A stretch of DNA of 64,000 nucleotides, from assembly GCA_027006785.1 (NCBI GenBank), contig JALTFR010000032.1, forward strand, positions 544-64,543, given 5' to 3'. The notes beneath the pieces are model-generated. The model was not told the DNA's origin. It did no database searches and saw nothing but the letters and a program-made list of their open reading frames with translations. Positions 41,226-56,410 of this stretch are shown piece by piece. Each line of letters opens with the position of its first letter. The first letter of the stretch is position 1. This stretch comes from Thermoplasmata archaeon (GTDB lineage: Archaea; Thermoplasmatota; Thermoplasmata; WALJ01). The position numbers were made by a program, and so were the translations under genes.

Positions 41226-42521
41226 ATGGATGCACAGGTAATTGCAGGTCTTTCAGTACTAATACTGGTCTATGTGCTCATAGGCTTCAATCTGATAAAC
41301 AGGACAGTTGCAGCGCTCTTCGGTGCCTTTCTGGTGGGACTTTTAGCTCTCATATTCGGGTTTGCAGGGCTTGACGATATCATTGATTACATAGATTTTG
41401 AAACCATAATCCTCCTCATGAGCATGATGATAATAGTTGGAATCCTCGGGAGAACAGGATTCTTTCAGGTTGTATCCTATAAAACAGCAAAGCTTGCAGG
41501 GGGTAGTTCGTGGAAGATACTTGTCGCCATAGCGCTCCTCACAGCCACACTCTCCGCATTTCTGGACAATGTCACCACCATACTCCTGGTTCTGCCGATA
41601 ACTCTGGAACTCACCAAGGCTATGGATATAAACCCGACACCATTCATACTTTCCGAGATTTTCGCATCCAACATAGGCGGAACAGCCACACTAGTGGGTG
41701 ACCCGCCGAATATAATGATAGGAACACAGGCCAATCTTGCTTTTATGGACTTCATATACAACCTTGCACCAATCGTTTTCATCGACCTCGGCGTGCTCAT
41801 TCTAATAATGTTTTTGATATACGGTAAAGAAATAATGTCTGCCAGTAAACTTTCCGAGGAAAAGCTCAGGGATATGGAGAAAAAGTACAGAATAGTGGAC
41901 CGCTCCCTGTATCACAAGTCCATAGGAATTCTCGTATTCACCATCGCTCTTTTCATAGTCGGAGAGGATTTTAACATCTCCTCGGCGGCTGCGGCGTTCA
42001 CCGGAGCCACCCTGCTTCTTCTCCTTACTCGCGAAGACATATACGGCGCTCTGGAACATGTGGAATGGCCGACCCTCCTCTTCTTCGCAGGGCTTTTCGT
42101 TGTTGTTGGCGGGGTGAACAGCATGGGTGTGCTGGACCTTATTGCCAATGGCATACTTGAGATTTCCCATGATAACATTGTACTCGCTATAATAGCAATA
42201 GTCTGGGTCTCTGCATTTACATCGGCAATAATAGACAACATACCATTCACAGCCACGATGATACCCGTGATATTCGTGATGTCCTCAAACCTGAATGTGC
42301 CCTCAGCCCCCCTGTTCTGGGCTCTCTCCCTTGGAGCATGTATGGGCGGAAACGGCACACTTATCGGCGCATCTGCCAATGTTGTAGGGGTGAGCATAGC
42401 GGAAAGGAATGGGATTATCATAGGTTTCAAGGGATTTTTGAGGAATGGAATGATTGTTATGATCAGTACCGTGGCGGTAGCCACGATATATCTCATAGTA
42501 AGATATGTATGGTTGGGGTGA
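41226..42521 (+). CDS. ArsB/NhaD-family (SLC13-like) ion transporter
   Basis: SAFLDNVTT, NIGGTATLVGDPPN, SAIIDNIP, GGNGTLIGASAN. Confidence 0.9.
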   Translation: MDAQVIAGLSVLILVYVLIGFNLINRTVAALFGAFLVGLLALIFGFAGLDDIIDYIDFETIILLMSMMIIVGILGRTGFFQVVSYKTAKLAGGSSWKILVAIALLTATLSAFLDNVTTILLVLPITLELTKAMDINPTPFILSEIFASNIGGTATLVGDPPNIMIGTQANLAFMDFIYNLAPIVFIDLGVLILIMFLIYGKEIMSASKLSEEKLRDMEKKYRIVDRSLYHKSIGILVFTIALFIVGEDFNISSAAAAFTGATLLLLLTREDIYGALEHVEWPTLLFFAGLFVVVGGVNSMGVLDLIANGILEISHDNIVLAIIAIVWVSAFTSAIIDNIPFTATMIPVIFVMSSNLNVPSAPLFWALSLGACMGGNGTLIGASANVVGVSIAERNGIIIGFKGFLRNGMIVMISTVAVATIYLIVRYVWLG

Positions 42522-42525
42522 AAAG

Positions 42526-43371
42526 ATGTACTCGCTGGCAGATAAGGAAGAAATGTATGCTCTGATTTCAAGGGTTCTCATGGTGGCTAATAAAAACCCT
42601 GTTATGATGAAAGCTGCGGAATACATGGGAAAACTTCTCCCTGAGGCGGAATATCACCTGATATATGTGATAGATACGTCCCAGAGAGGCATGGCGCTGA
42701 CCAAGGATATGGAACTCGCATCCGAGGAAATAGGAAAAAACTCGATAAAAGACATGGAGGATATACTGAAAACTGAAGGTGTCAGAAGTGTGAAAAGCAC
42801 TATAACAGAGGGAAAACCCCATGAAAGGACGCTGTGGTATGCACATAAATCAGGCATAGACCTGATAATCCTCAGCACTGATATTGAGCCTGAAAGGAAA
42901 AAACCGTGCTTGGGAAGGATAACAAAGAGCATTCTGGAAAGGACTGATATCCCCGCAATGGTCTTCACCCCGTATTTCAAAGAGGGAGCGCCCAGACAAA
43001 TACTGAACGTGAACAGCGGGGTTAATGAGTCATTCAGGGCCACGGAGATTGGGTTGAGGCTGTGCAGAGCCATAGGTGCGGAGATGCTAACATTGTACAT
43101 CGGAGAGGAGATTTCCTCTCACAGGATGGATGAGATGAAGAGAAAGGCTGAAGGGATGGGCGTTAGATATTCTGTTAAAATAGTTGATGGAAATCCTGTG
43201 GATATGGTTCTGAAAGAGTCTGAAAAAGCGGACCTTCTTGTGATGAGCAGAGGAATACCGAGTCTTAGATACCGCAGCCTGAGAAAGATATACCCCGGAT
43301 TCTCCTTTGACGCTGCAAAGAGGGAGATACTCAAGAAATCGAGCATTCCCGTGCTCCTGATACCCAAGTGA
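42526..43371 (+). CDS. Universal stress protein (tandem USP domains)
   Basis: EGKPHERTL..AH..GIDLIIL; GNPVDMVLKESEKADLLVM. Confidence 0.85.
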   Translation: MYSLADKEEMYALISRVLMVANKNPVMMKAAEYMGKLLPEAEYHLIYVIDTSQRGMALTKDMELASEEIGKNSIKDMEDILKTEGVRSVKSTITEGKPHERTLWYAHKSGIDLIILSTDIEPERKKPCLGRITKSILERTDIPAMVFTPYFKEGAPRQILNVNSGVNESFRATEIGLRLCRAIGAEMLTLYIGEEISSHRMDEMKRKAEGMGVRYSVKIVDGNPVDMVLKESEKADLLVMSRGIPSLRYRSLRKIYPGFSFDAAKREILKKSSIPVLLIPK

Positions 43372-43431
43372 TGTAAATGAAGGGAAGATTATTAAAGGTC
43401 TTTATCTATGTCGAAGTAGAAGGGGGATGAA

Positions 43432-44274
43432 ATGCACAGCATAACCAACGTAGAGGACCTGTACTCGGCGGTATCGAGAATCGTCATAGCGGCTGACAAA
43501 AGCCCTGTGATATTCAGGGGGGCCGCCTATACCGCCAGACTCTTTCCAGAGGCCATATACTACATAATAAATGTCATCAACACGACCGATAGGGCCATAG
43601 TGCTGAGCAAGGAATATGAGAACACCCTGAGAAAGATGGGCGAAGAGGCAATAGAATCCATAAAGGAGATACTGACACGTGAAGGTGTTAAAAAAATCGA
43701 AGAAAATATAGAAAGAGGCAGGCCATCCACGAGGATACTCACATATGCCAGAAATGTAGGTGCCAATCTCATAGTCCTCGCCACGCACTCTAAGATGGGC
43801 TCTCAGGCTCTAGGTCTCGGAGCAACATCCAGAGGCATAATAGAGAAGACGAAGATACCACTGCTCATCTTCACTCCTTTCTCAAGAGAAAGAGAGCCCA
43901 AGGTTATACTAAATCCTAGCAGTGGTGTCAAATATTCTTTCAAGGCAAGCATGCTTGCCATCCGTCTGGCACATGATCTCGGTGCCGAACTGGTAACCCT
44001 CTACACAGGTCATGGTGATGTGAGAAAGAAATACGGGACTGTCATAGATTATGCCAACCAGATGGACGTGAAATACACCATTGAAGTTGCAGAAGGAAGC
44101 CTCGCTGAAGCCATTCTGGAATACTCGAAGAAAGCGGACCTGATGGTGGCCAGCAGAGGAAGGCCCGGATTGGGATACAAATTCAGGGCTCTGTCCAAGG
44201 AACTGGCACTGGGAAAGCTGGAAAAAGAAGTTCTGGGCATGGTCGAAATACCGATTATTCTCATACCTGATTAA
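43432..44274 (+). CDS. Universal stress protein (tandem USP domains), paralogue of previous gene
   Basis: GRPSTRILTYA...ANLIVLATH; GSLAEAILEYSKKADLMVASRG. Confidence 0.85.
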   Translation: MHSITNVEDLYSAVSRIVIAADKSPVIFRGAAYTARLFPEAIYYIINVINTTDRAIVLSKEYENTLRKMGEEAIESIKEILTREGVKKIEENIERGRPSTRILTYARNVGANLIVLATHSKMGSQALGLGATSRGIIEKTKIPLLIFTPFSREREPKVILNPSSGVKYSFKASMLAIRLAHDLGAELVTLYTGHGDVRKKYGTVIDYANQMDVKYTIEVAEGSLAEAILEYSKKADLMVASRGRPGLGYKFRALSKELALGKLEKEVLGMVEIPIILIPD

Positions 44275-45357: not shown

Positions 45358-45495
45358 AGGGTGGGATTGCAGGTTAGATATTACTTTTTCCCCACCTCTG
45401 AATTCATCACTTCCAGTACACGAAAATGTCCTTCTGCACGCAGATAAAGAATATTGTTATATAGGAAAAGGATTTTGCCCGCCTTAGGCGTTAAA

Positions 45496-45792
45496 ATGGT
45501 AACGCAAACAGAAATTAAGAAGATGCTGGAGAACGGGACCTCCCAAGTTCCGCATGGAGAGGTCTACATAGTAGAGGAAAGATGCAAAGGTTGCGGTCTG
45601 TGCATAGCGTTCTGTCCCAAGCATGTGCTGGTTCAGTCAGACAGGATAAACGAAAAGGGATACCATCCACCTGAACTGGTGGAAGTACCACCCACCGATA
45701 TATGTATAGGGTGCGGGATGTGCGAGCGCATATGTCCGGATTTCGCCATTTTTGTGAAAACAGACAAGGACAAGGAGAAAAAGAGGGATTGA
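45496..45792 (+). CDS. korD: 2-oxoacid:ferredoxin oxidoreductase delta subunit (2x[4Fe-4S])
   Basis: CKGCGLCIAFCP, CIGCGMCERICPDFAI. Confidence 0.88.
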   Translation: MVTQTEIKKMLENGTSQVPHGEVYIVEERCKGCGLCIAFCPKHVLVQSDRINEKGYHPPELVEVPPTDICIGCGMCERICPDFAIFVKTDKDKEKKRD

Positions 45793-45793
45793 T

Positions 45794-46933
45794 GTGAGCA
45801 ATGAAATCCTTGAAGGAGAGTATTTTTTGAGCGGAGATGCAGCTGCAGCAGAGGGTGCCGTGGCCGCAGGTTGCAAGGTCTTTGCCGGATACCCAATAAC
45901 TCCATCCAGTGAGGTGGCGGAAAAGCTAGCAAGAAGGCTCCCGCAGGTAGGGGGCGTGTTCATACAGATGGAAGACGAACTCGGTTCAATAGCTGCCATA
46001 CTTGGTGCCTCGTGGGGAGGAAAGAAGAGCATGACAGCCACTTCAGGCCCGGGTTTCAGCCTTATGATGGAGAACTACGGCCTTGGAATGATGACAGAGA
46101 CGCCAACGGTCATCGTGAATGTTCAGAGGGGCGGCCCCTCCACAGGATTGCCCACACTTCTGGGCCAGGGAGAGTTCATGCAGGCCAAGTTCGGTTCCCA
46201 CGGGGTCTTTGAAGCAATAGCACTGGCACCTGAATCACCGCAGGAATGCTTCGATTTCACCATAAAGGCCTTCAATCTGGCCGAGAAGTACCGACAGCCC
46301 GTCGTCGTATTGATGGATGAATCCACAGGTCACCTTTTCGAGAAGGTCAGGATTCCTCCGGAGGACGAGATTGAGATAATAAACAGAAAGAAGCCAAAAG
46401 AGGTCCCCTATCCACCGTTCATGCCAGATGATGACTTGATACCGCCAATGCCGATTGTTGGCGAAGGCCACCAGATACATGCCACCGGCCTCACGCATGA
46501 CGAGTACGGAAGGCCCACCATAACTGCCGAAGCACAGGAAAAATACGTGAAGCGCTTGGTCGAGAAGATAAGAAAGCATGCCGACGAGATAATGGATTAT
46601 GAAGAGGTCATGACAGATGATGCGGATGTGATCGTCGTGGCATATGGAATAACCGCAAGGTCGGCCAGGAGAGCCATAATACAGGCAAGAGAGAAAGGAA
46701 TAAAGGCCGGTCTCATAAGGCTGAAGGTGGTGTGGCCGTTCCCGGACAAGATTCTCCAGAAATACGCGGATAAGAAGTTTGTAGTTGCGGAGGTCAATCA
46801 GGGCCAGGCCCTTATCATGGTAGAGAGAGCCATAAGAAAGAGCGCCACCTTCGTTGGGAAGATGGGCGGAGAACCACACAGGCCGGAAGAGATTCTCAAA
46901 GGAATAGAGGAGGCATACAATGCCAATTCATAA
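45794..46933 (+). CDS. korA: 2-oxoacid:ferredoxin oxidoreductase alpha subunit
   Basis: FAGYPITPSSE, QMEDELGS, TATSGPGFSLM, QRGGPSTG. Confidence 0.92.
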   Translation: MSNEILEGEYFLSGDAAAAEGAVAAGCKVFAGYPITPSSEVAEKLARRLPQVGGVFIQMEDELGSIAAILGASWGGKKSMTATSGPGFSLMMENYGLGMMTETPTVIVNVQRGGPSTGLPTLLGQGEFMQAKFGSHGVFEAIALAPESPQECFDFTIKAFNLAEKYRQPVVVLMDESTGHLFEKVRIPPEDEIEIINRKKPKEVPYPPFMPDDDLIPPMPIVGEGHQIHATGLTHDEYGRPTITAEAQEKYVKRLVEKIRKHADEIMDYEEVMTDDADVIVVAYGITARSARRAIIQAREKGIKAGLIRLKVVWPFPDKILQKYADKKFVVAEVNQGQALIMVERAIRKSATFVGKMGGEPHRPEEILKGIEEAYNANS

Positions 46934-47843
46934 GGCAGAACACCATCCTCTGGATGCGTATCTCAGGACAGAAAGGCTCCCGCATGTATGGTGTCCGGGC
47001 TGCGGTCTGGGAATAGCGCTGGGTGCCTATCTAAGAGCGCTCCAGAATGTCGGTTTTGACCCGCAGGAAACCGTCATGGTCTCGGGAATAGGCTGCTCCG
47101 GAAGGGCGGCCGGATATGTCAAGATGGACTCCTTCCACACAACTCACGGAAGGGCAATACCCTTTGCCGTGGGGCTCAAGGCCGCAAGGCCGGAGTTGAA
47201 CGTGACCGTGTTCAGCGGTGATGGAGACCTGTTCTCCATAGGTGGCAACCACATACTCCACGCTGCTAGAAGGAATGTGAACATCACTGTGCTTGCCATA
47301 AACAACTATGTCTACGGAATGACCGGTGGCCAGCTTGCGCCGACGACCCCGGAGTCATCCATAACTACGACATCCCCCTACGGTAACATAGAGTCGCCAT
47401 TCAACATAGCCGGGCTCATGGCCGTGGCAGGTGCATCCTATGTGGCCCGCTGGACCACGGTTCACGAGAGAAGGCTTCAGAAGTCCATAGAGAAGGCACT
47501 GACCAAGAGGGGATTCTCAATAGTCGAGATAATGTCCCCGTGCCCCACAACATTCGGAAGAAGGAACAACATGAGGGGCATAGTGGACTCCATGATGTAT
47601 TACAAGAAGTATTCGGTAATAAAAGAGCATCCGAACCCGCTGGACGGAGTTATAAAGCCGGGTGAGAAGTTCATAGTAGGGGAGTTCATGGACGCCCCGG
47701 ATGAGCCCACCTTCGAGGACAAGCTTGAGGAGCTGAAGAACAAGGAGTTCCTGAAGACAAGTCAGGCTGACAGAACAACATGGATACTGGAGCACAGAAG
47801 ACATCTTGAGACACTTGCTAAGATAATCGGAGGTGAGCAGTGA
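46920..47843 (+). CDS. korB: 2-oxoacid:ferredoxin oxidoreductase beta subunit
   Basis: WCPGCG, GIGCSGR, HGRA, GDGDLFSIGGNH, YGMTGGQ, SPCPT. Confidence 0.92.
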   Translation: MPIHKAEHHPLDAYLRTERLPHVWCPGCGLGIALGAYLRALQNVGFDPQETVMVSGIGCSGRAAGYVKMDSFHTTHGRAIPFAVGLKAARPELNVTVFSGDGDLFSIGGNHILHAARRNVNITVLAINNYVYGMTGGQLAPTTPESSITTTSPYGNIESPFNIAGLMAVAGASYVARWTTVHERRLQKSIEKALTKRGFSIVEIMSPCPTTFGRRNNMRGIVDSMMYYKKYSVIKEHPNPLDGVIKPGEKFIVGEFMDAPDEPTFEDKLEELKNKEFLKTSQADRTTWILEHRRHLETLAKIIGGEQ

Positions 47844-48388
47844 TGGCCCGCATAGAGATGCAGATAGGTGGTTTCGGAGGCCAAGGTGTCATACTGGCAG
47901 GCCTGGTAATAGCCAGAGCGCTCTCCCTCTACGACGGAAGGGAAGCGGTGTTCACACAGGCGTATGGGCCCGAGGCCAGGGGTGGAGCGTCTGCGTCCGG
48001 AATAGTCGTGGACGATGAAAGGGTTGACTACCCGTACCCCCTGCACCCCGAGATACTGGTGCTCATGTCGCAGGAAGCAATGACGACATACCTTCCAAAC
48101 ATGAGAAAGGGAGGCATTCTGATAATAGAGGAGAACCTGGTGCACCTTGATGGTGAGCCGGATGTTTCCGAACTTCATAAGATTCCTGCCACGAAGATAG
48201 CTGAGGAACTAGGGAACAAGATAGTCACCAACATAGTCATGGTCGGCTTCATAGCGAAGGTCGTAGGAGACAGGATAGGCCTGAAGAAGGAGAGTATCAA
48301 GAAGTCGGTGCTCGAAATGGTCCCTGCAAAGGTCAGGGAATTGAACGAAAAAGCGTTTGAGATGGGATATAACTACGAGGAGGCATGA
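47840..48388 (+). CDS. korC: 2-oxoacid:ferredoxin oxidoreductase gamma subunit
   Basis: GFGGQGVIL, YGPEARGG, NIVMVG. Confidence 0.92.
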   Translation: MMARIEMQIGGFGGQGVILAGLVIARALSLYDGREAVFTQAYGPEARGGASASGIVVDDERVDYPYPLHPEILVLMSQEAMTTYLPNMRKGGILIIEENLVHLDGEPDVSELHKIPATKIAEELGNKIVTNIVMVGFIAKVVGDRIGLKKESIKKSVLEMVPAKVRELNEKAFEMGYNYEEA

Positions 48389-48389
48389 A

Positions 48390-49112
48390 ATGTCCAAAGA
48401 GAAAGAGAATGATATGAAGATGATAACCGTGTACATAATGGGAAAGGCCTACAAGGTGCCTTTCGGGCTAACGATAATGAAGGCCATGGAGTATGCGGGA
48501 TACAGGTTCATAAGAGGATCAGGGTGCAGGGCAGGATTCTGCGGTGCCTGCGCCACGGTCTACAGGAGAAAGGGAGAGTACAAGCTCAGGACCGCCCTTG
48601 CCTGCCAGACCACTGTCGAGGACGGAATGTACCTGGCACAGCTTCCCTTTGTGCCATCCAACAGGAAGGAGTACGACATAGAGGAACTTGACCCGAAGAA
48701 GAATGTCCTTTCAGAGTATTACCCTGAGATAAACAGGTGCGTTTCGTGCAACACATGTACCAAGGCCTGCCCGCAGGAACTTCAGGTCATGGACTATATT
48801 CAGGCCTCAATAAGGGGGGACTATAAGCTGGTGACCTCCCTCTCATTTGACTGCATACAGTGTGGCCTTTGCGTCGTGAGGTGCCCCGCCGAGATAACCC
48901 ACTACCATGTGGCACAGCTTGCCAGAAGGCTCTATGGAAAATACTATTCACCCGTACCCCAGCACCTTCTGGACAGGTTGAAGGAGATAGAGGAAGGGAA
49001 GTTCGATTCAGAGATAGAGGAGCTGAAAAAGATGGATGCTAAGAAGCTTGAAGAGGTCTATGTCGCAAGGGACATACAGAAGATACCCAGAGGGGAGGTG
49101 GCTGGAGAATGA
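48390..49112 (+). CDS. Fumarate reductase-type Fe-S subunit ([2Fe-2S] plus 2x[4Fe-4S])
   Basis: GCRAGFCGAC...LAC; CVSCNTCTKACP; CIQCGLCVVRCP. Confidence 0.88.
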   Translation: MSKEKENDMKMITVYIMGKAYKVPFGLTIMKAMEYAGYRFIRGSGCRAGFCGACATVYRRKGEYKLRTALACQTTVEDGMYLAQLPFVPSNRKEYDIEELDPKKNVLSEYYPEINRCVSCNTCTKACPQELQVMDYIQASIRGDYKLVTSLSFDCIQCGLCVVRCPAEITHYHVAQLARRLYGKYYSPVPQHLLDRLKEIEEGKFDSEIEELKKMDAKKLEEVYVARDIQKIPRGEVAGE

Positions 49113-50758
49113 AGCTCATAGACGGATACACCGAGGAGATGCGCGAGTCCATAGAGAAGGTCGAGAAGACAAGGGCGGAGCGCATGAAGAAGAGCTATCC
49201 TGCCCTGACGATGGAGGAAAGGGAGGAGGTTCTCAATAAATACCATCCTGACTACAAGCCGGACAAAAAGAGGGCTGTCAGGGTCGGACCAAATAAGGGG
49301 GAAGTCGCGCCACATGAGGTCGTTGACCTTCTGGAGGCCTATCCTCTGATAACTGCAAAAGATGTTGACCTCAAGACCATAGACTACGATGTGGACCTCC
49401 TGATAATCGGAGGAGGTGGAGCTGGAACTGTGGCCGCGCTCTGGGCCAATGATAACGGCATATCTGCCGAGAACATACTGATGGCCACAAAGCTCAGGCA
49501 CGGAGATGCCAACTCAATGATGGCGCAGGGAGGCATACAGGCGGCGGATACACCTGAGGACAGCCCTGCAAGGCATTATCTCGATGTCATAGGAGGAGGT
49601 CACTTCGCGAACAAGCCGGAACTTGTGGAAGCGCTCGTCAAGGACGCTCCTTTCATACTCAAATGGCACGAGGAACTGGGCGTCATATATGACAAGGACG
49701 AGAACGGGAACTACATAGAGAGGCCCGGCGGCGGAACATCAAGGTTCAGGCTCCATTCTGCCAAGGACTACACCGGAATGGAGATAATGAGGGTCATCAG
49801 GGATGAGTTCAGGAACAGGCAGATACCTGTTCTAGAGTTCACACCTGCAGTGGAACTTCTAAAAGATGAGTCCGGAAATGTGGCAGGAGCGGTCCTCTTC
49901 AACATGGAGACCGAGCAGTACTACACCGTGCGTGCAAAGGCCACCGTGCTTGCGACAGGCGGTTTCGGAAGGCTTCACATACAGCAGTTCCCAACGACGA
50001 ACCATTACGGAGCGACTGCAGACGGGCTTGTGATGGCATACAGGGCCGGAGCGAAGCTCAGGGACCTTGACACCGTCCAGTACCACCCGACAGGCGCAGC
50101 ATATCCGGAGCAGATAGTCGGTCTCCTGATAACCGAGAAGGTAAGGGGAATGGGAGCGCAGCCTGTGGACAAGAACGGAGACCTCTTCGTCTTCCCGATG
50201 GAACCGAGGGATGTTGAGGCCGCCTCATTCATAAAGCGCTGTGCCGACGGAAAATGCGTGCAGACGCCCACGGGAATGCATGGAATCTGGCTCGACTCCC
50301 CGATGATAGAGGAAATCGAAGGTGAGGGTGCAATAAGGAAGAATCTCGATGCCATGTACAGGATGTACAAGCGCTTTGGAATAGACATGACCAAGGACCC
50401 GATACTCGTCTTCCCCACACTGCACTACCAGAACGGAGGAGTTGAGATAGATGCGAGCGCTCAGACATCCATACCAGGACTGTTCGCAGGAGGAGAGGTC
50501 GAAGGTGGAGTGCATGGAAAGAACAGGCTGATGGGAAATTCGCTGCTCGATTACAATGTCTTCGGAAGAAGGGCTGGAATAAGCGCTGCCCAGTGGGCCT
50601 CCAAGCGCTCCAAGCCCGGAAAGCTGAGCCTCGCCCATGTGGATTCCTTCGTAAAGGAACTGGAAAAGGCGAAGATACCTCCGGAGCGCAGGTCTCCGAT
50701 GCTTCTGCCAGAGTATAGAGGCGAAAAGGTTCTCGCAAGGATGCTTGATATCCTCTAA
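49109..50758 (+). CDS. Fumarate reductase / succinate dehydrogenase-family flavoprotein (TfrA-like)
   Basis: IGGGGAG, ANSMMAQGG, QYHPTG, TEKVRG, PRD, HYQNGG, NRLMGNSL. Confidence 0.9.
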   Translation: MKLIDGYTEEMRESIEKVEKTRAERMKKSYPALTMEEREEVLNKYHPDYKPDKKRAVRVGPNKGEVAPHEVVDLLEAYPLITAKDVDLKTIDYDVDLLIIGGGGAGTVAALWANDNGISAENILMATKLRHGDANSMMAQGGIQAADTPEDSPARHYLDVIGGGHFANKPELVEALVKDAPFILKWHEELGVIYDKDENGNYIERPGGGTSRFRLHSAKDYTGMEIMRVIRDEFRNRQIPVLEFTPAVELLKDESGNVAGAVLFNMETEQYYTVRAKATVLATGGFGRLHIQQFPTTNHYGATADGLVMAYRAGAKLRDLDTVQYHPTGAAYPEQIVGLLITEKVRGMGAQPVDKNGDLFVFPMEPRDVEAASFIKRCADGKCVQTPTGMHGIWLDSPMIEEIEGEGAIRKNLDAMYRMYKRFGIDMTKDPILVFPTLHYQNGGVEIDASAQTSIPGLFAGGEVEGGVHGKNRLMGNSLLDYNVFGRRAGISAAQWASKRSKPGKLSLAHVDSFVKELEKAKIPPERRSPMLLPEYRGEKVLARMLDIL

Positions 50759-50769
50759 GAGGGTTTGAC

Positions 50770-53175
50770 ATGGCTGAAAAGAAGAAGCCGAGGATTGGCG
50801 TATATGTCTGCCACTGCGGCGGTAACATCTCAGACACAGTGTATGTTGACCAGGTGGCGGAATATGCCAAGAACATGGAAGACGTTGTGGTCGTACGCAG
50901 CATCTCACACATGTGCTCCGAAGAGGGACAGAATGCAATAATCGAAGATATCGGAAAGGAGCACCTCGACAGGGTGGTAGTGGCAGCATGCTCCCCTCAG
51001 TTTCAGGGAGAGACATTCAAGAAGGCAGCTGCGAAGGCGGGCCTCAACCCGTACATGATAGAGATGGCCAACATAAGGGAACAGAGCGCATGGCCGCACT
51101 TCGAGGACAGGCAGAAGGCAACTGAGAAGGCAGAGGTACTTACGAGGATGGCTGTAGAGCGGATGAGGGAGGCAGAGCCCGCCAAACCCGAGAAGATAGA
51201 GATAGGAAAGACCGTACTGGTAATCGGAGCCGGAATCGCAGGTATTCAGGCCTCACTCGACCTTGCCGATGCTGGCTTTGATGTCCATCTTGTGGAGAAG
51301 AAACCAGTCATAGGCGGCCACATGGCACAGCTTTCCAGAACATTTCCTACAAACGACTGTGCATCGTGCATTCTTTCTCCAAAGATGGCGGATGTCGTGG
51401 AGCATCCGGGAATACACCTTCACAGGAATTCAGAGATTGTGGAGGCCAAGGGGACCGTCGGAAATTTCCAGATAAAGATCAAGGAAAATCCGGTCTATGT
51501 AGACCCGGTTGCATGTACTGCATGTAACAGGTGTGCGGAGGTCTGCCCCGTACTGGTGCCAAACGAGAACGACCTCGGTCTGACTCTCAGAAAGGCCATA
51601 GACATACCTTCGGGCATTGCGGTGCCTCACGCATATGTGCTTGATGACAAGGCCTGCCTAGGTCTGGAGCCGCTGGCATGTGGAAAATGCGCCGAGGTCT
51701 GTGACGTGAATGCGATAAACTATGACCAGAAGCCAAAGGAGATAGATGTGAAAGCAGATACCATAATCGTAGCAACAGGTTATGATATCTTCGACGCAAA
51801 GCTCAAGCCACAGTACGGCTATGGAAAGTTCGAAAATGTCCTGAACGCCCTTGAACTTGAAAGAATACTTGTGCATATGGGCGAAGGCAAGATGATAAAG
51901 AAGCTCGGAAAGAAGATCGCTTTCGTGCAGTGCGTCGGCTCCAGGGATGCACAGGTCGGGAACCTTTATTGTTCAAGGATATGCTGCATGTACGCGACGA
52001 AACTGGCGCTCATGCTTAAGAGTGCGGATCCATCAAAAGACATTTACATATTCTACACTGACCTGAGGGCCTATGGAAAGGGATTCGAGGAGTATTATCG
52101 CAGGGCTCAGGAGCTGGGTATTAAATATGTGAGAGGAAGGCCGGGAGAGCTGCATGAGAATCCTGAGAACAAGAAGATAATCGTTAAGGTTGAGGATACC
52201 CTTACGAGAAACATACTCCAGGGAGAGTTCGACCAGGTGATACTCTCAGTGGGACTGACGCCCAGTAAGGGAACCATAGAGATTGCGGAGATGCTCAAGC
52301 TCCCGAGAAGCCCGGACGGATTCCTGCAGGAAGCACATGCAAAGTTCAAACCGCTGGATACTGCTGTCGAAGGTATATTCATAGCCGGAACCGCTCAGGG
52401 ACCGAAGGATATACCTGATAGCGTTGCACAGGCGAGTGGGGCCGCTGCAAGGGCCATAAGGCTGATGAACCGCGGAGAACTGGAACTCAGCCCCGTCAAG
52501 GCCACCATAGACACTGAACTCTGTGATGGTTGTGGAAAGTGTGTAGAGGCCTGCCCTGCGGATGCGATATATATGATGGGTGGATTCGCCGCTGTCAATA
52601 CCCCAGCATGTAAGGGCTGCGGAGCATGTATATCATCCTGTCACACCGGCGCCATAGACCTGAAGGTATTCAGCAATGCCAAGGTTATGGAAGAGATCGA
52701 GGCAGCGCTCGAGGACAAGAAGCCCGGAGAGAACAGGATACTGCTCTTTGCTGACGATATGTGCACATACAGGCTGGCGGATGGTGTAGGTACTGCCAAG
52801 ATGAAATATTCACCAGATGTCCTCATAATACGGGTACCATCCAGTTCAAGGGTCACTCCTGAGATGATGGCAAAGGCATTCGAGCTCGGCGCAGATGGAA
52901 TAATGCTGGGAGAATGTGAGCCAGCCGTTTCACCCTATCTGGGAACAGGGCCGGTCATAGCCAGACAGGTGGAGGAACTCAAATCAATGCTTGAAAAGGC
53001 AGGTATAGAGAAGGAGAGGGTTCTTTTCACCCAGTATGTCACAGTGATGCTCTCCGCATTTGTAAACCACACGAACAGGATGTCGGACCTCACGAGAAAG
53101 CTGGGCAACATACCTGAGGAGAAGAGAAAGAAACTGGCCGAGATAGTCAAACAGATGAAGGAGGAATCTAAGTGA
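50770..53175 (+). CDS. hdrA: Heterodisulfide reductase subunit A with fused, degenerate MvhD domain
   Basis: VCHCGGNI, AACSP, IGAGIAG, KTFPTNDC-type RTFPTNDCASC, inserted ferredoxin, QCVGSRD, CSRICC, C-terminal ferredoxin, then MvhD-like domain. Confidence 0.95.
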   Translation: MAEKKKPRIGVYVCHCGGNISDTVYVDQVAEYAKNMEDVVVVRSISHMCSEEGQNAIIEDIGKEHLDRVVVAACSPQFQGETFKKAAAKAGLNPYMIEMANIREQSAWPHFEDRQKATEKAEVLTRMAVERMREAEPAKPEKIEIGKTVLVIGAGIAGIQASLDLADAGFDVHLVEKKPVIGGHMAQLSRTFPTNDCASCILSPKMADVVEHPGIHLHRNSEIVEAKGTVGNFQIKIKENPVYVDPVACTACNRCAEVCPVLVPNENDLGLTLRKAIDIPSGIAVPHAYVLDDKACLGLEPLACGKCAEVCDVNAINYDQKPKEIDVKADTIIVATGYDIFDAKLKPQYGYGKFENVLNALELERILVHMGEGKMIKKLGKKIAFVQCVGSRDAQVGNLYCSRICCMYATKLALMLKSADPSKDIYIFYTDLRAYGKGFEEYYRRAQELGIKYVRGRPGELHENPENKKIIVKVEDTLTRNILQGEFDQVILSVGLTPSKGTIEIAEMLKLPRSPDGFLQEAHAKFKPLDTAVEGIFIAGTAQGPKDIPDSVAQASGAAARAIRLMNRGELELSPVKATIDTELCDGCGKCVEACPADAIYMMGGFAAVNTPACKGCGACISSCHTGAIDLKVFSNAKVMEEIEAALEDKKPGENRILLFADDMCTYRLADGVGTAKMKYSPDVLIIRVPSSSRVTPEMMAKAFELGADGIMLGECEPAVSPYLGTGPVIARQVEELKSMLEKAGIEKERVLFTQYVTVMLSAFVNHTNRMSDLTRKLGNIPEEKRKKLAEIVKQMKEESK

Positions 53176-53576
53176 CACGTGTTGTGATGCTGAATGATAA
53201 TAGCGAGGCCTTCACAAAGAAGGTCAATGAGATGACGAACGACATGATAACCCTCTGTGAACAGTGCGGAATATGCAGTACCAGTTGCCCTGTTGCAGAG
53301 GACATGGATATACCTCCTTCGGAGATAATGAGGCTGGTACAGCTGGGAGACGAGTATGTTCTGGAGACAAAGGCGATATGGGTCTGTGCATCATGCTACA
53401 CATGTACGGTGCGCTGCCCGAGAGGAGTGGACCTTTCCAAGGTTACCGAGGCATTGAGGCAGATAAATCTGAGAACGAACGTCAATTATCTGGATATTGA
53501 CAATCTCGATTCCGAGGAAGTCGAGGAGTTACCGGCAATAGCGCTCGTCAGTGCCATGAGGAAGTATACAGGGTGA
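53172..53576 (+). CDS. hdrC: Heterodisulfide reductase subunit C
   Basis: CEQCGICSTSCP, IWVCASCYTCTVRCPRG. Confidence 0.93.
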   Translation: MTRVVMLNDNSEAFTKKVNEMTNDMITLCEQCGICSTSCPVAEDMDIPPSEIMRLVQLGDEYVLETKAIWVCASCYTCTVRCPRGVDLSKVTEALRQINLRTNVNYLDIDNLDSEEVEELPAIALVSAMRKYTG

Positions 53577-53577
53577 T

Positions 53578-54480
53578 ATGATGAAGAAGTTTCCATACTA
53601 CCCGGGATGCACGCTGAAACAGTATCCAAAGAAGTTCGGAATACCATCCGAGGAGTCTGCCAGAGCACTGGGACTGGAGATGGTCGAGATTCCGAGGTGG
53701 AACTGCTGCGGTGCTGTCGCATCCCTTACTGCAGATGATATGATGCATCAGGTGGCTCCGATACGAAACCTGATAAGGGTTCAGGAGATGAATGACGAGG
53801 GTCTTGTGGACAACGAGTACAGGCTTGTGGTTTTCTGCTCCATGTGTTTCAACACACTGAAAAGGGCAAACATGATGGTAAAGGAGAACGAAGCTGCCCT
53901 CAATACCATAAACGAGTTCATGGACAGAGAGCAGGACTACAAGGCCAATGTTGAAGTCGTTCATTTCCTTGAAATACTCCGGGACATGGGCTTTTACAGG
54001 CTGGAAGACATGATAAAGAAGCCACTGAAGGGTCTGAAAATAGCTCCTTACTACGGATGCAACCTTCTCAGGCCGAAAGAGGTCGGTATAGACAACCCCG
54101 AGGCTCCGACAATAATGGAGAACTTCGTGGAGGCTCTGGGCGCAGAGGTCATTGATAACCCGCTGAAGTCACTGTGTTGTGGAAGCTATCATACCGTTGG
54201 CGGTCACAAGGACATAGTTGCGGAAAGGACATACGCCATTGTCAATGCAGCCAGAAAAGCCGGTGCCGATATGATGATAACGGCATGTCCGCTCTGTGCT
54301 TTCAATCTGGACGACCGGCAGGCCCTGACCAAGGAACTCCATCCTGAGTTTCAGCATATGCCGGTTCTGTACTTCACACAGATTCTGGCCTTTGCTCTCG
54401 GACTGGAGGACAAAGCCGGCCTCGAGGAGAACTATGTGGATGCCCGCCCGATTCTTAGAGAAAAGGGCCTGATGGACTGA
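53578..54480 (+). CDS. hdrB: Heterodisulfide reductase subunit B
   Basis: Two CCG domains: YYPGC...WNCCG...CSMC and YYGC...CCG...ACPLC. Confidence 0.94.
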   Translation: MMKKFPYYPGCTLKQYPKKFGIPSEESARALGLEMVEIPRWNCCGAVASLTADDMMHQVAPIRNLIRVQEMNDEGLVDNEYRLVVFCSMCFNTLKRANMMVKENEAALNTINEFMDREQDYKANVEVVHFLEILRDMGFYRLEDMIKKPLKGLKIAPYYGCNLLRPKEVGIDNPEAPTIMENFVEALGAEVIDNPLKSLCCGSYHTVGGHKDIVAERTYAIVNAARKAGADMMITACPLCAFNLDDRQALTKELHPEFQHMPVLYFTQILAFALGLEDKAGLEENYVDARPILREKGLMD

Positions 54481-54514: not shown

Positions 54515-55147
54515 GTGAGAGTCATAATCAACTGCGCTGCATCCGTTGACGGGAAGATAGCACTGCCGAGCAGGAAGCAGACAAGGATATCCAGCGAGGA
54601 TGACATAGCAAGGGTGCACAGGCTGCGGGCCGAGGCGGACGCCATTCTCGTGGGCGTCGGAACGATCCTTTCAGACGATCCGAAACTCACGGTAAAGGAG
54701 AAGTATGCTCGGGGAAAGAACCCTCTGCGCGTCGTTCTGGACACGCATCTCCGCACACCTGAGGGCGCCATGGTGCTCAACGACATGGCACCCACCCTCA
54801 TATTCAACTCCCTGAAGGACGGAAGCTACGGAAATGCGGAACTGTTCAGATGTCCTGAGAACAACGGGCATGTGGATCTGAACTGCGTCCTTTCGGAACT
54901 GGAGAGAAGAGGAATAGGAACCCTCATGGTCGAGGGTGGCTCAACTGTGATATGGGAGTTTCTCAGGCAGGGAAAGGCAGATGAACTGAACATATTCTTG
55001 GGAGATATGGTGATAGGCGGAAGGGATTCGCCAACAGTCGCAGACGGCAGGGGAGCGCAGTCTATCGAGGATATCGTAAAACTTGAGTTCATAGAGGCCA
55101 GGAGGATGGGTGGAGGTGTACTGCTCAGGTACCGCCTGCCTTCATGA
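54515..55147 (+). CDS. 2,5-diamino-6-ribosylamino-4(3H)-pyrimidinone 5'-phosphate reductase (RibD C-terminal type)
   Basis: AASVDGKIA, DAILVGVGTILSDDP, RVVLD, LMVEGG. Confidence 0.9.
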   Translation: MRVIINCAASVDGKIALPSRKQTRISSEDDIARVHRLRAEADAILVGVGTILSDDPKLTVKEKYARGKNPLRVVLDTHLRTPEGAMVLNDMAPTLIFNSLKDGSYGNAELFRCPENNGHVDLNCVLSELERRGIGTLMVEGGSTVIWEFLRQGKADELNIFLGDMVIGGRDSPTVADGRGAQSIEDIVKLEFIEARRMGGGVLLRYRLPS

Positions 55148-56410
55148 GTTCAGGTACTTCGCCACCCTTTCCATTCCTTCCACTATTTTGTCTGTGTCAT
55201 TCACCAGAGGGCCGTATGATATACGAACTGCATTCTTGAGGGTCTGTCCGAAGCCTCCGCCGGGTATGAAAAGGACTCCGGTGTGCTTAAGAACCTCAGG
55301 AACGAACTCGTCCGCATCCCTTCCGACATCCATAACCGTGTAAAGCCCTCCTTTTGGAACCAATCTCCTCATTCCAAGGTTCTCGTCTATGGCCTTCAGG
55401 GTTATCTTTGCGGCGTTCTCATACTCCTTCTTGGTCTGCTCTATGTACCTTACAAGTGAGCCGTCGTCGAGAGAGGTGTTGATGTACTGAGTTATCGCCA
55501 TCTGGTGCAGGGTGTCCGGGCAGAGTATGGATATCTGCTGGGTCCTCTCCATCCCGGATATGACATCCTCGGACGCCTCTATCCAACCCATCCTTCTACC
55601 TAGCCCTCTGGCCCACTTGGAGTTGGAGTGTATCGCTATCAGGTTCTCGTGATCCTTCGGTGACCATGAGAAATACTCGGGCTCTTTCCCGAAGACCTGG
55701 GTCTTGTATGCGAAGTCAAGAACCAGATAACCCCCATGCTCCGTAACTATATCCAAGACTGCTCTGGCAAAGGCATCCGGAGGAATCTGGCTTGTCGGGT
55801 TGTCAGGTGCGGGGAACAGGACAACTTTCGGTCTTTTTGCATAGTATAGCTTCTCAAAGCGCTCTATGGCATCATCAACATCAGGCATGAACTCCCATTT
55901 CTCTGTGTCCATGGCCCTCAGGAAATAGACTTTTGGAGCTATCGGATGCACTCCCCTGATTCCGACGGCATACACCAGTTGCCCGTAGTAATTTGCATAG
56001 GTGGGGTCGAGAAGAACTATGCCGTCACCGGGGTCAGCGATGGTCACGAAAAGGTCATGGGTGAGCTGGCTGCTGGACTGACCGACTATGATGTTCTCGG
56101 GCCCTATGTCCATTCCGAATATCTCATGTTCCATTCGGGCGAGCGCCTCCCTCATCTCCATCGTTCCGGGTGTTGCGCTGTACGCTCCGCTGGCATGGAA
56201 CTTCTCCACATCGGACACTATGTCCATGTATGCCTCCCTCATCTCCTCAGGCGCTCTGTGGTTAACCCACCCTCCACCGAAGGAAATGACATCATCAGGG
56301 TCAAGGCCCATGTTTATGATGTTCTTCCTGTCTGCCATCTTCATTATCTGCCTGATTGGAGACGGGCTCTTTATCTGCTGCTGGACTATCTTTGAAAGTG
56401 ACGGCTTCAT
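55142..56410 (-). CDS. PLP-dependent aminotransferase class I/II
   Basis: PDNPT, LDFAY, SNSKWARGLGRRMGW, VRISY. Confidence 0.9.
   Translation of the reverse strand: MKPSLSKIVQQQIKSPSPIRQIMKMADRKNIINMGLDPDDVISFGGGWVNHRAPEEMREAYMDIVSDVEKFHASGAYSATPGTMEMREALARMEHEIFGMDIGPENIIVGQSSSQLTHDLFVTIADPGDGIVLLDPTYANYYGQLVYAVGIRGVHPIAPKVYFLRAMDTEKWEFMPDVDDAIERFEKLYYAKRPKVVLFPAPDNPTSQIPPDAFARAVLDIVTEHGGYLVLDFAYKTQVFGKEPEYFSWSPKDHENLIAIHSNSKWARGLGRRMGWIEASEDVISGMERTQQISILCPDTLHQMAITQYINTSLDDGSLVRYIEQTKKEYENAAKITLKAIDENLGMRRLVPKGGLYTVMDVGRDADEFVPEVLKHTGVLFIPGGGFGQTLKNAVRISYGPLVNDTDKIVEGMERVAKYLNS

Follow-up and report, generated by a model that had tools for sequence, protein, structure and literature searches.

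What does a complex II-like pair of proteins reduce, and whose electrons does it use, when its genes stand between those of a 2-oxoacid:ferredoxin oxidoreductase and those of an Hdr-type complex? This question is raised by positions 48,390 to 50,758 of a window of 64,000 nucleotides (nt), by which the whole stretch of DNA analysed is meant, from contig JALTFR010000032.1 of a Thermoplasmata archaeon (assembly GCA_027006785.1). The two genes encode an iron-sulphur (Fe-S) subunit and a flavoprotein. It is considered on balance probable, on sequence grounds, that within an Hdr-based complex, which may be electron-bifurcating and works with the co-encoded 2-oxoglutarate:ferredoxin oxidoreductase (Kor), they form the end that reduces fumarate, and that soluble, one-way reduction of fumarate is the most likely activity. 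The window pair is a typical member of a widespread, biochemically uncharacterised enzyme family predicted from genomes.

The flavoprotein carries much of this argument. It was compared with 80 family members (81 sequences in all), aligned with Escherichia coli SdhA, FrdA and NadB and with TfrA-like proteins. A first-pass annotation, made from the letters of the DNA, had reported that the motif for covalent binding of flavin adenine dinucleotide (FAD) was replaced by ANSMMAQGG while the catalytic residues were intact, and both observations hold throughout the family. In the alignment the segment DANSMMAQGG stands opposite RSHTVSAQGG in E. coli SdhA and RSHTVAAEGG in FrdA, and the position of the covalent-FAD His is taken by Asn135, which is Asn in 81/81 sequences. 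Residues H326, T342, E343, R346, R367, H439 and R473 correspond to FrdA H232, T244, E245, R248, R287, H355 and R390, and these seven residues of the dicarboxylate site and proton donor are likewise invariant in all 81; the roles of FrdA H232, T244 and R287 in the fumarate site have been described (PMC5773532). With the covalent bond the flavin potential is about 100 mV higher, and complex II variants without the covalent ligand keep fumarate reduction and lose succinate oxidation altogether (PMC5773532). Since Asn stands at the His site in the whole family and such variants cannot oxidise succinate, one-way fumarate reduction is favoured, and the earlier idea that a non-covalent FAD would point to fumarate reduction gains from the family-wide loss. 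The missing His is also a useful annotation marker for these genes, which are currently labelled 'FAD-binding protein', 'succinate dehydrogenase' or 'L-aspartate oxidase'.

Both ends of the protein differ from those of complex II, as had been noticed on first reading. At the N-terminus there is an extension of about 90 amino acids (aa): E. coli SdhA and FrdA begin opposite window residues 88-90, and the extension is conserved (60-71% consensus identity within the family) and modelled with a predicted local distance difference test (pLDDT) score above 90. At the C-terminus only 76 residues follow the last catalytic Arg, R473, compared with about 211 in FrdA; Pfam detects PF00890 only (residues 96-479) and does not find the C-terminal helical domain Succ_DH_flav_C (PF02910) in the flavoprotein. 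The Sdh/Frd flavoprotein of PDB entry 9lay is matched with an E-value of 4e-27. An AlphaFold (AF2) model built from a 74-row alignment reached a pLDDT of 94.8; it was used in place of a single-sequence run, which was set aside at 34.8. With this model as the query, Foldseek places E. coli FrdA first. VIA-align ranks highest the Shewanella flavocytochrome c3 fumarate reductases, which are soluble and hold FAD non-covalently (Z 42-42.7, root-mean-square deviation 1.8-2.3 Å over about 390 residues), and then FrdA (Z about 40), urocanate reductase (39), yeast Osm1 (38), mycobacterial Sdh1 (36) and NadB (35.4). Residues 1 to about 72 of the extension are covered by no structural match when the whole-protein model is the query. 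As modelled, the flavoprotein is structurally closest to soluble fumarate reductases with non-covalent FAD.

The phylogeny separates the family from its better-known relatives. The flavoproteins form a clade of their own (support 100) and collapse to one representative at 50% identity, after which the score drops from 805 to 475 bits. This clade is nested in a wider group, one part of which has the N-terminal extension at 40-46% identity and another part of which consists of proteins of about 400 aa. A complex II flavoprotein was rejected as an identity for lack of the covalent-FAD His, the C-terminal domain and anchor genes. Membership of TfrA was rejected as well: model NF004900 gives 327 bits against a cut-off of 718 and covers only model positions 6-409 of 546, whereas TfrA-like proteins of other genomes, with fumarase and TfrB-like neighbours, score 657-684 bits on the same model. 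The two groups form separate clades, each with support of 99-100, and a tree that joins them is rejected by the approximately unbiased (AU) test (p=0.0002). For this reason the 'split Tfr' of the first-pass annotation stands as a list of parts, which fits, but falls as a statement of shared TfrA ancestry. Several genomes that carry the family (L094-L099, G001, G002, G003, G005) also encode a second, full-length TfrA/SdhA-like paralogue of 527-572 aa with 480-523 bits on the TfrA model; in L096-L099 this paralogue adjoins an open reading frame of 468-488 aa.

L-aspartate oxidase has to be weighed at this point, because the first-pass annotation was to be given up if the protein grouped with it. 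The flavoprotein would then be NadB, working in NAD synthesis, with the Fe-S subunit removing its electrons anaerobically. It is the sole NadB-like gene in a genome with NadA and NadC, its FAD is non-covalent like that of NadB, its homologue Aboo_0982 is annotated L-aspartate oxidase, and a sister relation to NadB is not clearly rejected (AU p=0.052), although this value concerns the deep sister relation, a question apart from membership. The protein nevertheless lies outside the NadB clade (support 99-100), and NadB was rejected as its identity: model TIGR00551 gives 266.7 bits against a cut-off of 452.75, and the position of NadB Glu121 is occupied by Gly207 in all 81 sequences, where Sdh, Frd and Tfr have Phe. 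In E. coli NadB, E121 is the conserved Glu close to the substrate amino group. The genome further encodes a NadX-type aspartate dehydrogenase (115.8 bits, above cut-off), and an obligatory Fe-S partner in an Hdr/Kor setting is unlike a low-flux biosynthetic enzyme. Taken together, these points make L-aspartate oxidase scarcely credible.

The same Gly207 lends something to another reading, in which a different unsaturated or 2-substituted dicarboxylate, for example mesaconate, is reduced instead of fumarate. The clade is deep and separate and has no characterised member, and relatives in fold act on urocanate, cinnamate and steroids. Against it, all residues that bind and protonate fumarate in Frd and Sdh are invariant, and such genes recur with kor, sucCD and fumarase (PMC8542988; PMC7282089), so that only a very slight chance is given to another substrate.

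If fumarate is reduced, the source of the electrons must be sought among the neighbouring genes. The pair belongs to a run of nine plus-strand genes, from korD to hdrB, in which each junction is an overlap or a gap of at most 11 nt. The genes are as follows (domain assignments by Pfam and NCBIfam):

45454..45792, plus strand: korD-like 2x[4Fe-4S] ferredoxin subunit of a 2-oxoacid:ferredoxin oxidoreductase; Fer4 families; first gene of the tight operon.
45794..46933, plus strand: korA, alpha subunit of a 2-oxoacid (2-oxoglutarate):ferredoxin oxidoreductase; POR_N and PFOR_II; NF006412 at 531.9 bits (cut-off 411).
46920..47843, plus strand: korB, beta subunit, binding thiamine pyrophosphate; TPP_enzyme_C; best NCBIfam match 2-oxoglutarate ferredoxin oxidoreductase beta at 253.5 bits, below the cut-off of 364.
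47840..48388, plus strand: korG, gamma subunit; PF01558 POR at 121.5 bits.
48390..49112, plus strand: Fe-S subunit of the soluble fumarate-reductase-like enzyme, 240 aa; Fer2_4 and Fer4 dicluster families; cluster layout of SdhB/FrdB.
49109..50758, plus strand: flavoprotein subunit, 549 aa; PF00890, motifs, AF2 model, own clade.
50770..53175, plus strand: HdrA2-type subunit with a fused MvhD-like domain; NF040770 HdrA2 at 917.7 bits, below the cut-off of 1100; FlpD domain at residues 657-779.
53172..53576, plus strand: HdrC-like 2x[4Fe-4S] subunit; HdrC models, E-values 1e-19 to 1e-21.
53578..54480, plus strand: HdrB-like subunit with two complete CCG motifs; PF02754; SdhE 159 bits and HdrB 151 bits, both below their cut-offs.

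The ATG of the Fe-S gene lies 6 nt 3' of a GGAGG and immediately after the korG stop, and the Fe-S and flavoprotein genes overlap by 4 nt. Within this operon of kor, Fe-S, flavoprotein, hdrA, hdrC and hdrB genes there is none for a membrane anchor subunit.

The Fe-S subunit has the size of E. coli SdhB (238 aa) and FrdB (244 aa). Its 12 Cys, invariant in 77/77 sequences, are in register with the SdhB/FrdB ligands and provide for a 2Fe-2S cluster and two four-Cys motifs of the form CxxCxxCxxxCP. Cys158, an extra Cys relative to the E. coli proteins and invariant in all 77, is Ile in E. coli SdhB, Val in FrdB and Cys in TfrB-like proteins; through it the 3Fe-4S site of SdhB/FrdB becomes a four-Cys site. 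The first reading had the subunit stop after its ferredoxin motifs, without CCG domains, and this is what Pfam finds (no PF02754), while the TfrB model covers residues 19-85 only. TfrB-like neighbours of TfrA-like genes, on the other hand, are 472-474 aa long with CCG motifs, and TfrB itself has about 488 aa with fused C-terminal CCG domains. When longer versions of the Fe-S subunit were sought, no Fe-S/CCG fusion was returned, and the one fusion that did appear was to an NAD-binding reductase module; a blank of this kind is weak evidence. The Hdr subunits are well preserved: HdrC has 8 Cys invariant in 54/54 sequences, and HdrB has both CCG motifs whole, with 10 Cys invariant in 61/61, its closest solved chains being those of methanogen HdrB, which are catalytic subunits (E 1e-37).

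There is neither a membrane anchor nor a fused CCG domain, and the electrons would come through the co-encoded Hdr module. The enzyme would be a soluble heterodimer of a flavoprotein with non-covalent FAD and an SdhB-like subunit with one 2Fe-2S and two four-Cys [4Fe-4S] clusters, and would turn fumarate into succinate in this direction only. Electrons would pass from the HdrA flavin to HdrC, then to the non-cubane clusters of HdrB, the Fe-S subunit, the FAD and finally fumarate, which would replace the heterodisulfide of coenzymes M and B (CoM-S-S-CoB) as the high-potential acceptor (+30 mV) of an Hdr-type complex.

The link between the dimer and Hdr was followed through 80 loci of Archaea and Bacteria, and counts were limited to loci with sufficient flank. 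Of the 76 loci with enough room, 70 have the Fe-S gene immediately upstream of the flavoprotein gene; hdrB immediately precedes the Fe-S gene in 37/69, and the order hdrC-hdrB-FeS-flavoprotein was found in 32 loci. Some Hdr gene is present in 60 of the 68 loci that have at least one 6-kb flank, and kor genes are frequent in related loci, where they are at times interleaved with hdr genes. An association with Hdr subunits, as first proposed from the window, is thereby borne out as a genetic linkage across phyla.

The family is conserved at 62-90% identity across domains, and 38 of the 200 other Thermoplasmatota genomes that were sampled carry it. Archaeal hosts are Thermoplasmata, DHVE2, Thermococci, Methanofastidiosa, Archaeoglobi-related archaea, Methanomassiliicoccales and Asgard archaea, and bacterial hosts, as labelled, are Bipolaricaulota, Thermotogae, Aerophobetes, Aminicenantes, Chloroflexaceae, KSB1, TA06 and Sumerlaeota. 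The closest relatives of the genome are uncultured Thermoplasmata, and DHVE2/Aciduliprofundum reach 74-78% identity for the flavoprotein; the Aciduliprofundum boonei homologue (Aboo_0982) is 75% identical.

The position of hdrB also bears on a second way of joining Hdr to fumarate, namely a thiol-mediated 'split Tfr', in which HdrB would turn over in trans a diffusible thiol/disulfide couple or a protein such as DsrC or a lipoyl carrier, and this couple instead of an Fe-S wire would form the link. Its appeal lies in the full conservation of both CCG motifs, in the catalytic nature of the solved HdrB relatives, in the frequency with which hdrB immediately precedes the Fe-S gene and in the extra Cys that the Fe-S subunit shares with TfrB-like proteins; moreover, a DsrC-like intermediate is one option in the model for tubeworm symbionts (PMC11636981). 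It is weakened by the descent of the flavoprotein, which is separate from that of TfrA, and, to a small degree, by the absence of an Fe-S/CCG fusion among the longer forms. No candidate thiol carrier was noticed in the operon, a free thiol is unneeded where the parts form one complex, and coenzymes M and B are improbable in this host for the reason given below. A thiol link is therefore regarded as unlikely.

Under the preferred reading, electron transfer within one Hdr-dimer complex, the modules that would feed HdrA vary from locus to locus. Many related loci encode an uptake-type Mvh hydrogenase (MvhD, MvhG and MvhA in L048), others carry Flx-like genes (L024, L035), and L024 is laid out as seven Flx/Hdr genes followed by the two reductase genes. 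In DHVE2/Aciduliprofundum-type loci (L013-L019, L022, L023, L036; for example L017:1116-7993) the genes encode, in this order, HdrC, HdrB, HdrA, a second HdrA-like protein of 849 aa, MvhD, a 358-aa protein with weak Fer4 matches only, the Fe-S subunit and the flavoprotein; in this lineage, which includes a cultured genus, the input module may be a different and undescribed one. A sister clade with 44% identity and part of the N-terminal extension, on bacterial contigs L102-L104:7366-10891, has a NuoF-like gene (Complex1_51K and NADH_4Fe-4S) next to the Fe-S and flavoprotein genes, with no Hdr, and is a candidate for an NADH-dependent soluble version. Two proteins from public collections are natural fusions: P0142 joins an Fe-S domain to a sister-clade flavoprotein, and in P0411 an NAD-binding module of FNR/FlxA-like type is fused to an Fe-S subunit 55% identical to that of the window. 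Judged from these Mvh, Flx and NuoF-like contexts and from the two fusions, the Fe-S/flavoprotein dimer behaves as a catalytic cassette that takes electrons from interchangeable partners.

What donor is at hand in the Thermoplasmata archaeon itself was sought in its assembly (1.33 Mb, 49 contigs, 90% complete). Apart from the flavoprotein gene it has no SdhA-like gene. A class I fumarate hydratase of two subunits is encoded on the minus strand at contig C32:76511-77982, about 12 kb past the window end, and its subunits are 54-56% identical to those beside TfrAB-like genes in locus L089; SucC is encoded at contig C3:11457-12539. With SucC and class I fumarase present, the branch from fumarate to 2-oxoglutarate is complete in this genome. 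McrA was not found in the 90%-complete assembly, which makes the thiols CoM-SH and CoB-SH unlikely as donors. Reduced coenzyme F420 (F420H2), used by HdrA2 of M. acetivorans, was discarded as a donor since no CofD was found in the genome. Hydrogen or an Flx-type NADH input was also discarded here, because tblastn searches of the assembly did not find MvhA, MvhG, FlxB or FlxC; only a weak FlxA-like match appeared, on contig C45. The MvhD-like domain fused to HdrA (window 52720-53175) keeps two of the five Cys conserved in free MvhD (L048, L035, L017). The closest relative, L012, shows the same loss, while the fused MvhD of L030 keeps all five. The loss coincides with the finding of no Mvh or Flx donor genes in the genome. 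Such a donor-less arrangement is a minor variant of the family.

The energetics were considered from standard potentials, which are +30 mV for fumarate/succinate, -320 mV for NADH, -414 mV for H2 and about -450 to -500 mV for ferredoxin. Reduction of fumarate by H2 or NADH would leave spare energy for the reduction of ferredoxin, as in Bcd-Etf or Mvh-Hdr. In loci with Mvh hydrogenase or Flx NADH dehydrogenase, electron pairs would be split between fumarate and ferredoxin, and the reduced ferredoxin would then feed the co-encoded Kor; one reduced ferredoxin per fumarate would match the need of Kor for the carboxylation of one succinyl-CoA. In the genome studied here, either HdrA would accept hydride straight from a donor such as NAD(P)H, or ferredoxin reduced by Kor would itself be the donor. 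A bolder version is put forward tentatively, as a proposal with rather less than an even chance: in non-methanogens the non-cubane clusters of HdrB would serve as a relay only and fumarate, not a disulfide, would be the true high-potential acceptor of Hdr-type bifurcation, and in this archaeon HdrA would take a hydride from NAD(P)H or a Kor-Hdr-Frd supercomplex would pass electrons of Kor to fumarate.

The same potentials allow the opposite direction to be judged. The enzyme would then be a confurcating succinate dehydrogenase, which joins the electrons of succinate with those of Kor-reduced ferredoxin and hands them to NAD+ or protons during the breakdown of glutamate and 2-oxoglutarate. The presence of kor in the operon would suit it, Kor yields one reduced ferredoxin per succinate by established stoichiometry, relatives such as Aciduliprofundum are peptide fermenters, and succinate oxidation was weighed by the authors who described SdhA beside HdrA2B2C2 in Culexarchaeia (PMC9723716). 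The mean potential of the two donors, estimated from standard potentials at about -235 mV, is however too high for NADH, and for H2 unless its level is extremely low; many loci have a hydrogenase of the uptake type; and the covalent-FAD His, without which complex II variants cannot oxidise succinate (PMC5773532), is missing in the whole family. Confurcation is thus very unlikely.

Several observations weigh against the proposed fumarate-reducing end of an Hdr complex. No biochemical characterisation of any family member was found in the literature searched. To judge from its gene contexts, the dimer can work with inputs other than Hdr, as in the P0411 fusion, the NuoF-like sister loci and the L035-type order, where an Flx NAD-binding gene and not hdrB directly precedes the Fe-S gene. 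HdrB retains every ligand of the disulfide-reducing site, and a thiol or disulfide intermediate is thus possible. For bifurcation in particular, the 90%-complete genome showed no donor module, and the cluster ligands of MvhD are lost. Finally, the systems of Pseudoclostridium thermosuccinogenes, tubeworm symbionts and Celaenobacter are likened to the window by gene layout and not by sequence, and no P. thermosuccinogenes protein is among the named homology matches listed for the flavoprotein.

Genes flanking the operon deserve a brief mention. About 1.2 kb upstream (window 41226-44274) lie a gene for a CitMHS-family di/tricarboxylate transporter, which could move succinate, malate or citrate in or out, and two tandem-Usp genes, with a divergent radical-SAM gene between these and the operon. 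A RibD_C-domain gene begins 34 nt after hdrB (window 54515-55147); the domain is a reductase fold, NADPH-dependent in RibD. In L005, too, a gene of this kind comes after the flavoprotein gene, and in L007 and L008 one is found a few kb downstream; it may serve riboflavin/FAD supply or be a mere neighbour. A class I/II aminotransferase gene on the minus strand (window 55142-56410) converges on the operon end and could tie glutamate/2-oxoglutarate or aspartate/oxaloacetate to the pathway.

If the fumarate-reducing complex exists as proposed, it would answer the old question of what HdrABC-type complexes reduce where there is no CoM-S-S-CoB, and the known bifurcating systems would gain an energy-conserving fumarate reductase that is membrane-free. 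Low-potential ferredoxin from such an enzyme could be used to make 2-oxoglutarate or to produce H2. Aciduliprofundum boonei, as a cultured host, makes the hypothesis testable.

Similar proposals have been made for other organisms. The 'succinate operon' of P. thermosuccinogenes contains fumarase, FlxABCD-HdrABC and a two-gene fumarate reductase and ends with a putative succinate transporter, and succinate formation is proposed to be coupled to ferredoxin reduction (PMC7282089, citing Koendjbiharie and van Kranenburg 2019, 10.20944/preprints201912.0288.v1). Clusters of Hdr, Kor and 'Tfr' genes led to the same proposal for tubeworm symbionts (PMC11636981) and for Ca. Celaenobacter of the Cloacimonadota (PMC8542988). 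Locus L024 repeats the P. thermosuccinogenes layout of its Flx/Hdr and reductase genes. These systems share with the window a two-gene reductase beside HdrABC, but they also have Flx or Mvh, with Kor, fumarase and SucCD in many cases, whereas the window has no Flx or Mvh donor, carries an MvhD without cluster ligands fused to HdrA, and is ordered kor, FeS, flavoprotein, hdrA, hdrC, hdrB.

Methanogen TfrAB (NF004900, NF004898) resembles the pair in being a soluble flavoprotein with an Fe-S protein whose third cluster is of the four-Cys type, in its combination with CCG-type clusters and in serving, with Kor, the reductive branch to 2-oxoglutarate. In the window, however, the CCG domains belong to an HdrB-like protein of their own, which comes with HdrC and HdrA, and the flavoprotein has Asn where the TfrA-like proteins examined have His, bears the N-terminal extension, lacks the C-terminal domain and is of a different lineage by the AU test above; its host gives no sign of coenzyme M/coenzyme B metabolism. 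With E. coli SdhA/FrdA (1nek, 1kf6) the pair has in common the FAD domain, the capping domain, the catalytic residues and an SdhB-like partner in the same ligand register; it differs in lacking the covalent-FAD His, PF02910 and anchor genes and in having the four-Cys third cluster and the N-terminal extension of about 90 aa. The MvhAGD-HdrABC complex of hydrogenotrophic methanogens (5odc, 8rvu) likewise has HdrA, HdrC and HdrB with all cluster ligands, and Mvh is co-encoded in some related loci, but the presumed acceptor here is fumarate, reached through the added Fe-S/flavoprotein dimer, not CoM-S-S-CoB, and the window is without Mvh and the MvhD ligands. In structure the flavoprotein itself is most like Shewanella flavocytochrome c3 (1qjd, 1d4c) and yeast Osm1, which also have non-covalent FAD and the same catalytic residues, and neither an anchor nor a C-terminal helical domain of the SdhA type; at about 34% identity, those enzymes are fed by a fused tetrahaem domain or, for Osm1, by FADH2/NADH, whereas the flavoprotein of the window would be fed by a separate SdhB-like Fe-S subunit and Hdr.

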